From Candidatus Aenigmatarchaeota archaeon (lineage in GTDB: Archaea > Aenigmatarchaeota > Aenigmatarchaeia > JACPZZ01): a stretch of DNA of 31,869 bases. Both the position numbers and the translations under genes were made by a program. Location: contig JAZDGV010000100.1 of assembly GCA_043806535.1 (NCBI GenBank), positions 1 to 31,869 on the forward strand, read 5' to 3'. Shown piece after piece: positions 4,321 to 29,761 of the stretch. A model generated the notes under the pieces. That model did no database searches. It was not told the DNA's origin and saw only the letters and a list, made by a program, of their open reading frames with translations. How positions within the stretch are numbered: position 1 is the stretch's first letter; each line of letters opens with the position of its first letter.

Positions 4321-5013
4321 TTATTTCCTTGCCCGGAGCCTAATCATGTTTAGGAACATCCCGGGTATGTGCCCGAAAGTGAAGGATGACCTTTTAACAG
4401 CCTTTGGATGCATGTAGACTTCCTTTATGCTGAAACCGTTCCTTTTGATTTTCTGAAGCAGCTCGACGTCAAACTCAAACCCCTTGCTTTTGAATTTTTT
4501 TCCTATTTTTTTCAGGACGTCCCTTTTCATGATTTTGAGACCCGCCTGCGTATCGGAAAAATCCAGCCCAAGAAGCGTCCTTGCCATGAGATTCCATGCC
4601 CTTCCGAAGAGTTTTCTCAAGAAGCTTCCGCGAACGTTGAAAAAATTCCGCCCTTTCCATTTAGACGCGATTATGCAATCATAATTCCCCATTTGCCGGA
4701 AAATGCTTGAAATTGATTCCGGAGAGAAAGCTCCGTCGGCGTCAACGAAACCGATGCGATCCCCTCTCGCCCTCCTAAATCCCTCTGCGATGGCCGCGCC
4801 CTTTCCCATCCGCCCGTTAAACGCGATTACAACCGCCTTTCCCCTGACTTTTTTTGCCTCGTCAAATGTCCTGTCAGTGCATCCGTCACAAACAACTATC
4901 ACTTCGCTTCCCCTGATTTTTCCCAGAATTCCGGAGACCGTTTTTTGTATGCTCTTCTCTTCGTTGTGCGCGGGGACAATCATGGACAGTTTCGGGACGC
5001 TCATAAACACCAT
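4321..5013 (-). CDS. Glycosyltransferase family 2 (DPM1-like polyprenol-phosphate glycosyltransferase)
   Basis: IVPAHNEE, VCDGCTDRT, GKGAAIAEG, FVDADG, DTQAGLK and FEFDVELL motifs. Confidence 0.9.
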   Translation of the reverse strand: MVFMSVPKLSMIVPAHNEEKSIQKTVSGILGKIRGSEVIVVCDGCTDRTFDEAKKVRGKAVVIAFNGRMGKGAAIAEGFRRARGDRIGFVDADGAFSPESISSIFRQMGNYDCIIASKWKGRNFFNVRGSFLRKLFGRAWNLMARTLLGLDFSDTQAGLKIMKRDVLKKIGKKFKSKGFEFDVELLQKIKRNGFSIKEVYMHPKAVKRSSFTFGHIPGMFLNMIRLRARK

Positions 5014-5066
5014 TAAAATGCTTTCAAACTTTCTGTTCTAAATACTTATCGTTTTGTTCCGTGGCT

Positions 5067-6422
5067 TTATGACGTGTAACCGAGAAAAAGCCTCAACTGC
5101 CGGAATAGCAGACCGTAATTCCCTTCCATCAGGCGGGAAAAAACATACGACGGCCTGAAATAATATTTTCTATACGCGTTTTTAATGAATTTGTCCAGCT
5201 CTTCCGCAGAATAAATTCCGGTGTATGCCGAGGGGAACAAATCCCCAATTTCACCTTCGACCATCTTATAAAGCCCAGTTTCAGGATATGGAATTGCTAT
5301 GTGGAATGACGCGTAAGTTGGATTCAGTTTTATGGCGAATTTGACGGTTTTTTCCATATCCTCGGATGTTTCCGTCGGAAATCCCAGAATGAAGAAGCAC
5401 GCGGTAGAAATTCCGGCGTCCTTTGTCAGCTTCATGCCGTTTTCAATCTGTTCGAACGTGATGTTTTTGTTTATCATTTTCATTATTTTTTCAGACCCCG
5501 TCTCAACCCCGTAATGCATCAACACGCATCCCGCCTGCTTCATTCTTACCAACAGATCCGTGTCTATCGTGTCAAATCTTCCTTGGCAGCACCACTTGAA
5601 ATCATATTTTTTTTCTATCAAGAAGTCGCAAAGGTCGGCGACAAGCTTCTTGTTGATTGTGAATTCCAAATCGATGAAGTATGCCGTTTTTATCCCGAAT
5701 TTCTCGATTGCAAGCCTAACTTCGTCTATGAGCTTTTTTGAAGATTTTTTTCTGTAAGAACCGTATGTTTTCTTGAGGCAAAATACGCAGTTGAACGGGC
5801 AGCCGCGAGAACCCTCAAAAAGCATAAAGTTTTTTCCGAGCATGTCGTAAAAATATTTCTCCAGCGGCAGCAAGTGGTACGCAGGCGTTGGCAAAGCGTC
5901 GAGGTCAAAAGGCTTCCTGTCCGGGGTTGAGATTGTTTTTTTGCCCGCCTTAAAGGTTATGCCGCCGATTTTTTTCAGGTCTTTGCTGTTGCAAATTTCA
6001 AGGACAACCTGCTCCGGTTCGCCCCTTATAACGCATTTCGCTTTGGTCATTTCAAGAATTTCGTTCGGCCTTATTGTCCCATGCGTGCCCATCACAAAAA
6101 TCTCCGCGTCTGGGTTGTTCTCTCCGACTTTGCGCACGACGTCCAAGAACGGGTTGATGCTAGGGTGCGGGCATTGCCATCTGTCGAGGGGCGATGACGT
6201 GATGAATATTTTTTCGTAGCCAGACGCCGCTTTTGAGACCTGGTCTGCGTCAAGCCGCTCCGCATTGGCGTCCAAGATTTTAACTTCAAAACCGCTTTTT
6301 TCGAGCATCGCGGCGCAATTGGCCAGACAAATCGGGGGCCATATTTTGTTGTAATACAAGAATTTTTCCTTTTTTACGAGCGGATAGTCGTATGAAGGAT
6401 TGACCAACAAGACTCTCGACAT
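5067..6422 (-). CDS. Cobalamin-binding radical SAM protein (class B methyltransferase-like)
   Basis: N-terminal B12-binding-like domain (PPICLANCAAML...ILDANAE); CxxxCxxC motif RGCPFNCVFC; YGVETGS and FFILGFPTET motifs. Confidence 0.88.
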   Translation of the reverse strand: MSRVLLVNPSYDYPLVKKEKFLYYNKIWPPICLANCAAMLEKSGFEVKILDANAERLDADQVSKAASGYEKIFITSSPLDRWQCPHPSINPFLDVVRKVGENNPDAEIFVMGTHGTIRPNEILEMTKAKCVIRGEPEQVVLEICNSKDLKKIGGITFKAGKKTISTPDRKPFDLDALPTPAYHLLPLEKYFYDMLGKNFMLFEGSRGCPFNCVFCLKKTYGSYRKKSSKKLIDEVRLAIEKFGIKTAYFIDLEFTINKKLVADLCDFLIEKKYDFKWCCQGRFDTIDTDLLVRMKQAGCVLMHYGVETGSEKIMKMINKNITFEQIENGMKLTKDAGISTACFFILGFPTETSEDMEKTVKFAIKLNPTYASFHIAIPYPETGLYKMVEGEIGDLFPSAYTGIYSAEELDKFIKNAYRKYYFRPSYVFSRLMEGNYGLLFRQLRLFLGYTS

Positions 6423-21385: not shown

Positions 21386-21522
21386 GCCGGGATCGCATAA
21401 CCAGGTAGTGCGCCAGTCTCGAATAAGCCTTTCTTTTGAAAAAGAAAGCCTTAATGGAAAGAAAACCTGCGAGAGAACTGGTGTGGCTCTGCCACTTATG
21501 GGTTCAAATCCCATTCCCGGCG
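21386..21522 (+). tRNA. tRNA-Ser(CGA) with a 52-nt intron at 37/38 (21424-21475)
   Basis: Acceptor stem GCCGGGA/TCCCGGC, G73, long variable arm, anticodon stem CCAGT/ACTGG, BHB central helix CTCG/CGAG. Confidence 0.93.
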
Positions 21523-21523
21523 C

Positions 21524-22294
21524 TTACCACATCTTCTTCAGAATCTCCTTTGACGTCTTTGCGAAAGCCCGTCCGGGGAAGAAGATTTCGAAGGTTATCG
21601 TGTCATCGTACCCGATTTCTTTAATTTCTTTGGCAACGGCTTTGAAATCTATCTTTCCAAACCCGATTCCGAGATGCTCGTCCCTCATTCCCCCGTTGTC
21701 GTGGAAGTGCAAGTGACGAATCTTCTTGCCGAAAGTCTTGATATACCTCTTAACTTCTCCCATACCACCTTGTATGAAAGCGTGCCCGACGTCAAAGTTG
21801 ACAGCAACTTCTGTGTTCTTCACGACATATTTGAACTCTTCCAAAGAATTGTTTGGCGTGTTTTCAAGAACCAGAAGCACACCCTTTGAGTGGGCTTGGA
21901 GCGTTTTTATGCTGTCTATATAATTGTGCAGTGCCTGGTCCCTGGATTTCTTGTTGTTTGCAGCCACGCCCCTGATTTCAAGGTGAACTGTGAGTTTTTT
22001 CGCGCCAATCTCGCTTGCGATGTCTATTACCGCTTTAATCTGGTTTATCCACCTCCTTCTTACCAGCTGGTTCAAACTCCCCAGCTCTGCCCACCACGGC
22101 GCATGACCAAGTGAGAACATGTTGTATTTTTTGAGCGATTTCAGTATGGCCGATTTGTTCTTTCTGAGAAGTTCGGGCGTTCCCATAGGCTCTTCGATCG
22201 CTATTTCGGCGTAGTCGAACCCCATCTTTGCGACAGTCCGTATTTCCTTCACGATGTCGGCTGACGGGTTCGTTATGTTACCGAATTTCGGCAT
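21524..22294 (-). CDS. Sugar phosphate isomerase/epimerase (AP endonuclease 2 TIM-barrel family)
   Basis: GFDYAE, LVLEN, NFDVGHA, HLHFHDN..DEHL and ITFE metal-binding motifs. Confidence 0.85.
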   Translation of the reverse strand: MPKFGNITNPSADIVKEIRTVAKMGFDYAEIAIEEPMGTPELLRKNKSAILKSLKKYNMFSLGHAPWWAELGSLNQLVRRRWINQIKAVIDIASEIGAKKLTVHLEIRGVAANNKKSRDQALHNYIDSIKTLQAHSKGVLLVLENTPNNSLEEFKYVVKNTEVAVNFDVGHAFIQGGMGEVKRYIKTFGKKIRHLHFHDNGGMRDEHLGIGFGKIDFKAVAKEIKEIGYDDTITFEIFFPGRAFAKTSKEILKKMW

Positions 22295-22359
22295 AAGATG
22301 AGTTTATGAAATTATGGTTATTAATGACTGATGCCAAAACACAATATTATGGCTAAGAG

Positions 22360-22482
22360 GGGCCCATGGTCTAGTGGCTAGGACGCCACCCTCACAATAA
22401 GCCTTTCTTTTGAAAGAAAGGTTAATCGAAAGAAAATAGTATGGGAACGGTGGAGATTCCGGTTCGATTCCGGGTGGGCCCA
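22360..22482 (+). tRNA. tRNA-Val(CAC) with a 51-nt intron at 37/38 (22397-22447)
   Basis: Acceptor stem GGGCCCA/TGGGCCC, A73, anticodon stem CCACC/GGTGG, BHB central helix CTCA/TGGG with bulges CA|A and AA|C. Confidence 0.92.
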
Positions 22483-22484
22483 AG

Positions 22485-22533
22485 CTACCCTTTTCTTTGG
22501 TAAAGAAAAGAGGTAAGGTATCGGAAAAGAAAC
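22485..22533 (+). repeat. tRNA-3'-flanking hairpin element, family A
   Basis: CTACCCTTTTCTTTGGTAAAGAAAAGAGGTAAGGTATCGGAAAAGAAAC; 47/50 positions match the copy at 29712-29761. Confidence 0.85.
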
Positions 22534-22572
22534 AAACGAAAGGAAAGGTTAGTTGCTAAGGAGGTGCCGATT

Positions 22573-22595
22573 GAAGCACATCGAAGATGTGCTTC
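22573..22595 (+). repeat. REP-like family B variant hairpin
   Basis: GAAGCACATC-gaa-GATGTGCTTC followed by GGT; same outer arm as the other family B copies. Confidence 0.6.
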
Positions 22596-22616
22596 GGTTT
22601 GCGCTTTCCTCGCAAT

Positions 22617-22689
22617 GGGCCTGTCGTCTAGCGGTTAGGACGTCACGCTTACACCGTGAAGGTCGCCAGTTCGAATCTGGCCGGGCCCA
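22617..22689 (+). tRNA. tRNA-Val(TAC), intronless
   Basis: 73-nt cloverleaf: GGGCCTG/CGGGCCC, loop CT-TAC-AC, T-arm GCCAG-TTCGAAT-CTGGC. Confidence 0.96.
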
Positions 22690-22691
22690 TG

Positions 22692-22741
22692 CTCCCCTTT
22701 TCTTTAAAAAAGAAAAGTGGTAAGCTATCCCAAAAGAAAAC
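22692..22741 (+). repeat. tRNA-3'-flanking hairpin element, family A (diverged copy)
   Basis: CTCCCCTTTTCTTTAAAAAAGAAAAGTGGTAAGCTATCCCAAAAGAAAAC, starting 2 nt after tRNA-Val(TAC). Confidence 0.8.
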
Positions 22742-22788
22742 GTAGGAAGGGTTAGCTACTAAGGGAAACCAAAGGTTTCCCTCGTAGA

Positions 22789-22899
22789 GGGCTGGTAGAT
22801 CAACGGTAGATCGCCACATTGGCAACAACCCTTTTAAAAAAAGGGTTGATCGAAAAACCACGCTTGTGGAGGCTTCGGGTTCGAATCCCGACCAGTCCA
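22789..22899 (+). tRNA. tRNA-Ala(GGC) with a 39-nt intron at 37/38 (22825-22863)
   Basis: G3:U70 wobble in the acceptor stem, A73, anticodon stem CCACA/TGTGG, relaxed BHB (TTGG/CCAC). Confidence 0.9.
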
Positions 22900-22995
22900 A
22901 TGCCCGATGAAGAAAACCTGTAATGGGCGGACTGAGGGCAACAACCACTTGGATATTAATTTTTAATTAAGCCAACAAAGTATAATTGTGGGCAT

Positions 22996-29711: not shown

Positions 29712-29761
29712 GTTTCTTTTCCGATAACTTACCGCTTTTCTTTACCAAAGAAAAGGGGTAG
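29712..29761 (-). repeat. tRNA-3'-flanking hairpin element, family A
   Basis: Minus strand reads CTACCCCTTTTCTTTGGTAAAGAAAAGCGGTAAGTTATCGGAAAAGAAAC, starting 1 nt after the tRNA-Ile discriminator base. Confidence 0.85.

Follow-up and report, generated by a model that had tools for sequence, protein, structure and literature searches.

Canonical archaeal tRNA introns at position 37/38 carry a bulge-helix-bulge (BHB) splice motif (Marck and Grosjean, 2003, as cited in PMC4090602). In the Thermoproteales, near-identical introns in different tRNA isotypes have been described as "intron transposition"; occupancy varies between relatives, intron gain is inferred at the DNA level, and no source of the introns is named (Fujishima et al., 2010, Mol Biol Evol, via PMC4090602). 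Cross-isotype families of at least 80% identity hold 28% of the introns in Thermoproteales versus 1.5% in Asgard archaea, with no arrival route found (bioRxiv 10.64898/2026.10.13.758758). Here we describe 37/38 introns in the Ser(CGA), Val(CAC) and Ala(GGC) tRNA genes of a 31,869-nt contig (hereafter the window, meaning this whole stretch of DNA) from a Candidatus Aenigmatarchaeota archaeon (GenBank assembly GCA_043806535.1, contig JAZDGV010000100.1). We lean towards the reading that these introns are copies of a duplicative, probably mobile repeat, each joined to a tRNA-specific adaptor, and that they are gained and re-filled at the level of DNA.

The locus resembles the Thermoproteales cases in that similar introns occur across the isotypes of one genome and that occupancy varies among relatives. 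In contrast to those cases, only the 5' hairpin and tail are common to the introns, the BHB-forming 3' ends being unrelated; all five intronic copies of this genome lie at 37/38, and the same unit is also found between genes (11 of 16 copies); and the host is not a crenarchaeon but a DPANN-like archaeon with a tiny genome.

Small palindromic repeat families include the bacterial REP (repetitive extragenic palindromic) elements with their RAYT transposases, the Rickettsia palindromic elements, and miniature inverted-repeat transposable elements (MITEs). The repeat found here is like these in being a short dispersed hairpin with compensatory stem changes, presence/absence differences, nesting, and a patchy distribution; unlike them, it has a directional purine tail and resides in tRNA introns that are predicted to be spliced. 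Our literature search returned no description of a tRNA-intron unit that ends before the adaptor and is shared with intergenic DNA, in a tiny DPANN-like host.

The window is contig C100 of a 564-kb assembly of 110 contigs that is 66% complete (G000). It was compared with seven genomes of the sister genus (G001-G007) and with further relatives that include G009 and G014, the latter from another family of the same class; the set searched with a covariance model comprised 41 related genomes. Orthologous proteins of G000 and the sister genus are 56-70% identical. Genome sizes of the relatives range from 0.5 to 1.3 Mb, and the host is an archaeon of DPANN-like size (~0.6-1 Mb).

Intron architecture and predicted splicing

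The feature under study extends from the first base of the Ser(CGA) intron to the last base of the Ala(GGC) intron (21424-22863). tRNA genes were called using aragorn with introns allowed, ARAGORN, and Rfam, and spliced sequences were re-called by aragorn; the Rfam scan of the window gave tRNA matches only. The preliminary description had assigned 37/38 introns to Ser(CGA), Val(CAC), and Ala(GGC) and none to the neighboring Val(TAC) gene, and these assignments hold: introns of 52, 51, and 39 nt were identified, their removal leaves canonical tRNAs with the expected anticodons (aragorn), and neither ARAGORN nor Rfam called an intron in Val(TAC), which is intronless in all sister genomes examined as well. 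The unspliced Val(CAC) gene is mislabeled by aragorn with introns allowed. The features are as follows, where family A is the repeat family, R2 its covariance model, and A1 its alignment, all described in the next section.

21386-21523, + strand: tRNA-Ser(CGA) with 37/38 intron (aragorn -i; spliced form called Ser(cga))
21424-21475, + strand: Ser(CGA) intron, 52 nt (boundaries chosen for a 7-nt mature anticodon loop)
21423-21466, + strand: family A repeat copy in the Ser intron (R2 45.7 bits, E 1.4e-7; row 1 of alignment A1)
21470-21473, + strand: Ser adaptor CGAG, would pair with C32-U33-C34-G35, followed by the 3' bulge AG|A (read from sequence)
22360-22482, + strand: tRNA-Val(CAC) with 37/38 intron (Rfam tRNA 51.4 bits; spliced form called Val(cac))
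22397-22447, + strand: Val(CAC) intron, 51 nt (spliced call; anticodon-arm fold)
22397-22437, + strand: family A repeat copy in the Val intron (R2 44.9 bits, E 2e-7)
22442-22445, + strand: Val adaptor TGGG, would pair with C32-U33-C34-A35 (one G-U), followed by the bulge AA|C (minimum-energy fold)
22617-22689, + strand: tRNA-Val(TAC), intronless (ARAGORN, Rfam)
22789-22899, + strand: tRNA-Ala(GGC) with 37/38 intron (Rfam 56.7 bits, aragorn -i; spliced form called Ala(ggc))
22825-22863, + strand: Ala(GGC) intron, 39 nt (aragorn -i; spliced call)
22825-22861, + strand: family A copy of the 'CAAC...GTTG' subfamily in the Ala intron (R2 41.7 bits, E 1.2e-6)
22858-22861, + strand: Ala adaptor CCAC (sequence; adaptor helix absent from folds)

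The plan common to the Ser, Val, and Ala introns is a hairpin with a pyrimidine-rich and a purine-rich arm, flush with the 5' splice site, followed by an A-rich tail and a short 3' pairing end (the adaptor). Across the assembly, aragorn with introns allowed also identified two further introns built in this way, in Gly(GCC) and Cys(GCA) on contig C22; removal of the 40-nt Gly(GCC) intron (aragorn) restores a 7-nt anticodon loop, and the Cys gene without its intron is likewise a canonical tRNA with the expected anticodon. Within the last 6-9 bases of each intron lies a tetranucleotide able to pair with nt 32-35, namely CGAG, TGGG, and CCAC for the introns of the window and GCGA and GCAG for those on C22. 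Read from the sequence, all four pairs are Watson-Crick in Ser, three plus one G-U in Val, and three plus one mismatch in Ala.

When the anticodon arm is folded together with the intron, the anticodon stem (5 bp) is predicted to continue into a 4-bp helix, with 3 nt bulged out at the 3' splice site, in Val, Cys, and Gly (in the centroid fold for Gly); in the minimum-energy fold of Ser, three of the four adaptor pairs form, beside a 1-nt rather than a 3-nt bulge, and the Ala adaptor helix (3 bp plus mismatch) was not predicted in the folds. The 5' splice site lies in a predicted 2-5-nt joint that separates the central helix from the repeat hairpin, whose first base is intron base 1 or 2; no h' helix forms with the 3' part of the intron, and the strand opposite the 5' splice site is 10-20 nt, A-rich, and unpaired. 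The position, the predicted 4-bp helix with nt 32-35, the predicted 3-nt 3' bulge, EndA, and the canonical tRNA after removal are as in canonical 37/38 BHB introns; in contrast to these, the 5' site has the central helix on one side and an autonomous hairpin on the other, and the absence of an h' helix makes the predicted structure bulge-helix-loop-like. Thus, the folds indicate a relaxed rather than a strict BHB (hBHBh', in which a 4-bp helix lies between two 3-nt bulges and further helices flank these), and the earlier statement that each 3' end complements its own anticodon region to rebuild the BHB stands for the host-specific pairing with nt 32-35 but not for a strict motif.

A single EndA (216 aa, PF02778 and PF01974) is encoded on contig C68 of G000 (L128:77-724), with its best solved-structure match to 1a79, the Methanocaldococcus homotetramer enzyme, and each of seven relatives has one copy. 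RtcB is present in five of the five sister genomes checked. The RtcB matches at G002:C11:32550-33908 and G004:C2:290412-291743 have in-frame stops (three TGA and one TAA, respectively), for which an insertion, recoding, or a broken gene could account. Given the canonical spliced tRNAs, the predicted fold features, and the presence of EndA, these introns would be spliceable.

A repeat family within and outside tRNA genes

As the preliminary description had reported, the Ser and Val loci have an identical 20-nt block over the 5' splice junction: the 20-mer AATAAGCCTTTCTTTTGAAA occurs exactly twice in the window (21422-21441 and 22396-22415), never in 100 shuffles of the window, and nowhere else in the assembly, even with 2 mismatches. 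Local alignment scores of intron pairs were compared with those of 2000 dinucleotide shuffles, which reject chance for Ser-Val (z=14.3, 0/2000) and Val-Ala (z=6.8, 0/2000) and leave Ser-Ala unremarkable (z=1.4, 260/2000). A stricter null (n=3000) that retains the hairpin and shuffles only within the arms, loop, and tail gave 0/3000 for both Ser-Val and Val-Ala and a marginal 107/3000 for Ser-Ala; it was rejected for the pair of Ala and Gly introns as well. Similarity for Ser-Val and Val-Ala is therefore greater than among random A/T hairpins. Because Ser-Ala fails the nulls and Val-Ala passes them, the link of Ala to the family runs by way of Val and further copies and not directly through Ser, so that its homology, claimed earlier from the shared plan, is retained by this indirect route while the direct Ser-Ala similarity is not significant. 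Taken together, the comparisons support descent rather than chance as the relation of the Ser, Val, and Ala introns.

Sequence identity is distributed unevenly along the introns. The Ala(GGC) and Gly(GCC) introns are identical at 33 of 34 positions over the repeat and diverge completely beyond these 34 positions, at the adaptor; at ~85% over the whole intron they exceed the 80% identity between two tRNA types by which transposed intron groups are recognized, and the copied unit does not include the splice-motif parts of the intron. The Ser and Val introns are ~88% identical over 42 aligned columns and ~71% over the whole intron; within their repeat the 5' half is exact for 20 nt and the 3' half ~80% identical, the two genes lying 973 nt apart. 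This pattern would fit local conversion, of which it gives a hint, but it is only marginally improbable by chance.

The shared part was followed through the whole assembly with a hairpin scan and a tail-anchored scan, and 42 copies from G000 and relatives were then aligned (A1). An initial model (R1) was discarded since RNAalifold gave no consensus pairs, the inner stem being shifted by indels, and was replaced by a covariance model built with a hand-given structure (R2). The family A unit is ~35-45 nt long and consists of a T/C-rich 5' arm, an A/G-rich 3' arm, and a tail of the type T(T/C)A(A/G)(T/G)(C/G)(A/G)AAAGAAA. Its outer stem covaries in A1 (TAAG/CTTA, CAAG/CTTG, TGAG/CTCA, CAAC/GTTG), with the exchanges U-A/C-G, A-U/G-C, and G-C/C-G/A-U; two-sided changes were counted in 42 cells versus 13 expected, none of 500 shuffles reached as high, and slid controls collapse.

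In the 564-kb assembly, R2 recovers 16 copies at E<=3.3e-4, five in 37/38 introns (Ser, Val, Ala, Gly-GCC, Cys-GCA) and 11 intergenic, and scores both kinds alike (36-49 bits). Among the 41 related genomes, 20 have matches, including all eight of the family (2-28 copies each); elsewhere in the class the distribution is patchy among families, with up to 23 copies per genome. The family is thus multi-copy, dispersed, and structurally conserved, as are mobile palindromic repeats. In the relatives, the unit was also seen within a T-loop intron, in tRNA trailers, and in the 37/38 introns of Asp, Pro, Arg, Gly(TCC), Ala(TGC), and Ala(CGC). All intronic copies seen run in one orientation and begin at the splice site. 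These comparisons indicate that the part shared by the introns is a structured repeat family and is not specific to introns.

One alternative to common descent is convergence, whereby any stable A/T-rich hairpin at the 5' splice site would serve the endonuclease. In all cases examined the hairpin does abut the 5' splice site, and the Ser-Ala similarity alone is not significant; yet the hairpin-preserving nulls were rejected for Ser-Val, Val-Ala, and Ala-Gly, the copies have tails, loops, and even a C-C stem mismatch in common (the mismatch, present in the hairpin of the Ser intron, is characteristic of a 'GCC' subfamily), and the unit also occurs outside tRNAs, where splicing is irrelevant. 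We regard this explanation as largely refuted by the nulls and the intergenic copies, and as very improbable.

A second alternative is pure intron-to-intron transposition, in which a whole BHB intron would be copied and its 3' end would then adapt, the intergenic look-alikes being a separate matter. It accords with the near-identity of the Ala(GGC) and Gly(GCC) introns, the restriction of the Gly intron to this lineage (see below), the absence of the exact Ser/Val 20-mer from the rest of the assembly, and the Thermoproteales precedent (Fujishima et al., 2010, as summarized in PMC4090602). Against it, the Ala/Gly identity ends exactly at the end of the repeat and the adaptors are unrelated, which argues that what is copied is the repeat rather than the intron; one covariance model fits intronic and intergenic copies equally; and some intronic copies are nearer to intergenic ones, the copy in the Ala(TGC) intron of G009 resembling intergenic copies of G000 more than it does other introns. 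Although it is one of the two main rivals to our reading, we consider such transposition improbable. The preliminary description had implied that the shared module is an intron that moves from tRNA to tRNA; with 11 of 16 copies intergenic the module is a dispersed repeat, and the donor therefore need not be another tRNA.

Several candidates and further repeats were noted around these copies. A BHB-like arrangement of the flanks of an intergenic copy on C88 was considered and rejected, since inspection by eye gave no more than a 5-bp pairing and a second helix is lacking. A 112-nt intron in Glu(TTC) on C23 was not counted, its third hairpin resembling family A but scoring E=0.62 with R2; this intron starts with a copy of a different family, found in trailers after tRNA 3' ends, which consists of a CCCTTTTCTTT...AAAGAAAAG hairpin and a GGTAAG.TATC..AAAAGAAA tail. 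The trailer family is represented in the window by the following features, and also at 29730-29760 (-).

22488-22537 (alternatively delimited as 22488-22540), + strand: 3' trailer of Val(CAC), a hairpin followed by a GGTAAGGTATCGG-AAAAGAAA tail (hairpin scan, sequence)
22694-22743 (alternatively delimited as 22694-22745), + strand: 3' trailer of Val(TAC), same trailer family as the Val(CAC) trailer (hairpin scan)

The Val(CAC) trailer has the architecture of family A, yet R2 gives no match to it at E<=1. In G014, the trailer family has at least 14 intergenic copies (L020, L077-L079), up to 96% identical to the Val(TAC) trailer over 46 nt. A dispersed repeat of ~65 nt lies downstream of Gly(GCC) (C22 ~4900-5100, L090) and has at least 10 copies in the assembly that are 80-100% identical (C86, C88:196-261, C64, C3, C12, C68:1165-1222, C77, C27:1622-1656, C95, and C42), and a hairpin family with the core CAAACCTTTGGTTTG recurs beside family A copies and tRNA trailers (L082 on C88, ~100-130; L098 on C6; L099 on C68).

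Intron occupancy in the family

Synteny of the Val-Val-Ala tRNA cluster extends to the sister genus, where all six genomes examined have a 37/38 intron (17-54 nt) in Ala(GGC); in G002 and G004 this intron is missing the hairpin and has kept only a tail-like part and the adaptor. Cys(GCA) has an intron in all family members examined; its adaptor is conserved and its hairpin shows compensatory substitutions, and in G003 the hairpin is of another type. Since both sites are occupied in every family member examined, the sequences indicate that they are old and family-wide and that only their filling turns over.

Three other sites vary. Val(CAC) has an intron in one of five sister-genus genomes, and Ser(CGA) has a 37/38 intron in one of five, as a 16-nt form without hairpin in G003, being without it in G001, G004, G005, and G006. 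Gly(GCC), syntenic beside Ser(GCT), has no intron in G002-G005 or in either of the two copies of G001, and is contiguous in several outgroup families; only in G000 is it split, by ~40 nt. Absence of the intron from the orthologous gene of relatives, a further mark of transposed intron groups, hence applies to Gly(GCC), to Val(CAC) and Ser(CGA) (four of five without the 37/38 intron in each case), and not to Ala(GGC) or Cys(GCA). The most economical reading of the Gly(GCC) intron would be a gain in this lineage, with a near-identical sister copy in Ala(GGC).

In the sister genomes with an intronless Val(CAC) (L011, L014, L016, and L017, from G007, G001, G004, and G002, respectively), the anticodon arm of this gene is nearly that of the neighboring Val(TAC), and the intron-bearing Val(CAC) of G000 and G003 has a different arm; it looks as if the intron-bearing gene had been replaced in those relatives by a re-anticodoned Val(TAC) copy. 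The Ser(CGA) genes of G004, G006, and G001 (L120, L121, L028), which have no 37/38 intron, contain a long variable-arm insert from a GAAACATG...CATGTTTC-type hairpin, and those of G004 and G006 have an additional short insert 5' of the anticodon.

Variation is also apparent within Ala(GGC) at the strain level and at intergenic sites. A 117-nt contig from a groundwater metagenome is identical to the window over 22864-22949 (86 nt, including 50 nt of non-coding flank) and differs in the 3' end of the Ala intron, where it has a filling of the 'GCC' subfamily with a perfect CCAA adaptor. In another contig, of 538 nt, the Val(TAC) and Ala exons match exactly, the Ala intron measures 83 nt, and both spacers are replaced by 26-nt sequences. 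With identical flanks or exons, such contigs possibly represent near-identical strains. The orthologous regions upstream of psmA and aspS in the sister genus are without family A, and some of these genomes have other hairpins there. Other hairpins are nested in the family A stem in the Gly(TCC) intron of G007 (L143, 88 nt) and the Cys intron of G005 (L142), where two foreign hairpins interrupt the 5' arm. Orthologous sites thus appear as both filled and empty alleles, as judged from the regions upstream of psmA and aspS, Gly(GCC), the hairpin-less Ala(GGC) introns, and the metagenome contigs, and the turnover looks recent.

The repeat unit of the Ser intron is 84-92% identical to many sister-genus copies, and a 19-mer, with up to 2 mismatches, is present in five sister-genus genomes. 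For comparison, the Ser and Val copies of the window match at 89%, and orthologous proteins of the two genera at only 56-70%. Because the family consensus is maintained across genera (~90% conserved), sequence similarity dates no event, including a Ser-Val transfer. The preliminary description had proposed a recent spread of introns between non-isoacceptor tRNAs with adaptation of the 3' end, to be checked against introns fixed and ancient across the lineage. Descent, host-specific 3' ends, variable occupancy of Val(CAC), Ser(CGA), and Gly(GCC), and the apparent Gly(GCC) gain agree with this proposal; it needs amending in that the unit is a dispersed repeat, the Ser-Val event is undatable, and the Ala(GGC) and Cys(GCA) sites are old.

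Searches of genome contigs with ArgRS for close relatives returned only matches of <=44% identity (bacteria, Nitrosotalea), an exact-protein look-up returned no match, and a search of metagenome contigs with the neighboring gene of the AP-endonuclease family returned only relatives of <=44% identity, with no tRNAs on those contigs. The sequencing runs that contain parts of the window are labeled as groundwater, lake, aquatic, and drinking-water metagenomes only, with no RNA run listed among them; each contains a small share, so that groundwater is no more than the likeliest habitat. Near-duplicate tRNA genes were observed on separate contigs of G000 (C19/C75, C55/C57, C93/C106, and C100:29761-29893/C110), and the assembly may have merged two strains or contain genuine tRNA duplications.

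Proposed gain and re-filling of introns by the repeat

Under the reading that we favor, each intron would consist of one repeat of ~35-45 nt joined to a tRNA-specific adaptor of 5-10 nt. At the RNA level, the folds suggest that pairing of the adaptor with nt 32-35 forms the central helix of 4 bp and leaves a 3-nt bulge on the 3' side, next to the anticodon stem, that the repeat hairpin, because it begins at the first or second intron base, takes the place of the outer helix at the 5' splice site, and that the A-rich tail acts as a single-stranded connector; this relaxed BHB substrate would be cut by the single 216-aa EndA and joined by RtcB. At the DNA level, the comparisons suggest that the repeat lands in, or is copied into, many sites, and that within tRNA genes only the spliceable copies persist, so that introns would act as landing or holding sites. 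New introns could arise in this way (Gly-GCC, in this lineage) and old sites could exchange their filling (Ala-GGC, Cys-GCA), and neighboring copies may homogenize, the exact 20-nt 5' half of the Ser and Val repeats being a case in point.

A more specific version, which we advance tentatively and hold to be less than an even prospect, is that the repeat itself seeds new tRNA introns. It would insert at 37/38 with its own hairpin as the 5'-site helix, and a few 3' bases would pair with nt 32-35 fortuitously or through quick selection; the hairpin supplying the helix and the 3' bases pairing with nt 32-35, a new insertion would be spliceable at once, and the Gly(GCC) intron would be freshly born.

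Several observations weigh against copying by a mobile repeat. The Gly and Ala adaptors are unrelated, and the origin of the adaptor is left unexplained by the repeat. RtcB, Y1 transposase, and reverse transcriptase were not found in G000, which is 66% complete; Y1 transposase occurs only in G001 and G002, and reverse transcriptase only in G001 and G007. A link to IS200/IS605 was rejected, since the Y1 loci of G002 and G001 are not bounded by family A hairpins. Six of the seven sister genomes have TnpB, for which G000 gave only a weak sub-threshold match, and this gene was not linked to the repeat. No target-site duplication or terminal signature was seen at the ends of the element. Neither a cognate transposase nor a target-site signature, as expected of a mobile palindromic repeat, is thus in evidence: in contrast to the REP elements and their like, the family has no cognate Y1 (RAYT-type) transposase in G000 or in most relatives and no target-site duplication was seen. 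The strain-level evidence consists of short Logan contigs only, and the ~90% conservation of the consensus between genera, already mentioned, also belongs on this side.

The placement of the intergenic copies belongs here too, being non-random: seven of 11 sit 13-84 nt upstream of a start codon in the orientation of the gene, and in G000, G002, G004, and G006, and hence in both genera, a copy that overlaps a conserved gene's stop codon occupies the same position (L089:480-521 on C20 of G000, L126, L065, and L067). The latter begins at ...GTTCAA TGA/TAA and shows a compensatory stem difference (TGAG/CTCA versus TAAG/CTTA); the conserved sequence ahead of the element, on C20 and in its orthologues, gave no Rfam match. 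This copy may be functional and terminator-like, which hints at cis-function over pure selfishness. The second main rival holds that family A functions in cis, its purine-tailed hairpin being terminator-like or bound by protein, and that selection, not mobility, keeps it at gene boundaries and in pre-tRNAs. In addition to the stop-codon copy and the orientation and distance bias upstream of start codons, the stem covariation, the conservation between genera, and the uniform orientation and register of the intronic copies are in its favor. However, in the sister genus the element is lacking upstream of the corresponding genes (psmA, aspS); 21 of the 41 related genomes, whole families included, are without it; its copy number varies from 2 to 28 within one family; and the genes below the seven copies (arginase-family enzyme, AspRS, AlaX-like protein, proteasome alpha subunit, oxoacid oxidoreductase, ThyX, and ATPase) are functionally unrelated. 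The tail was also considered as a TATA box or a Shine-Dalgarno site, and this was rejected as a general reading: the distances from TTAATC to the start codon (12-39 nt, by eye) fit neither, and psmA has its own GGTGAT site. Overall, we judge a cis-element kept by selection to be an unlikely explanation for the family.

The locus bears on how archaeal tRNA introns arise, in that the sequence shared by introns can be traced to a dispersed, structured repeat that also lives outside tRNA genes. With a Gly-GCC intron that is missing from every sampled relative, a near-identical sister copy of it in the same genome, and contigs with identical flanks or exons that differ in the filling of one splice site, intron gain, re-filling, and the minimal substrate of EndA become testable. 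If the repeat does seed introns, this family would offer a live and tractable case of tRNA-intron birth, driven by a small repeat without a known transposase.

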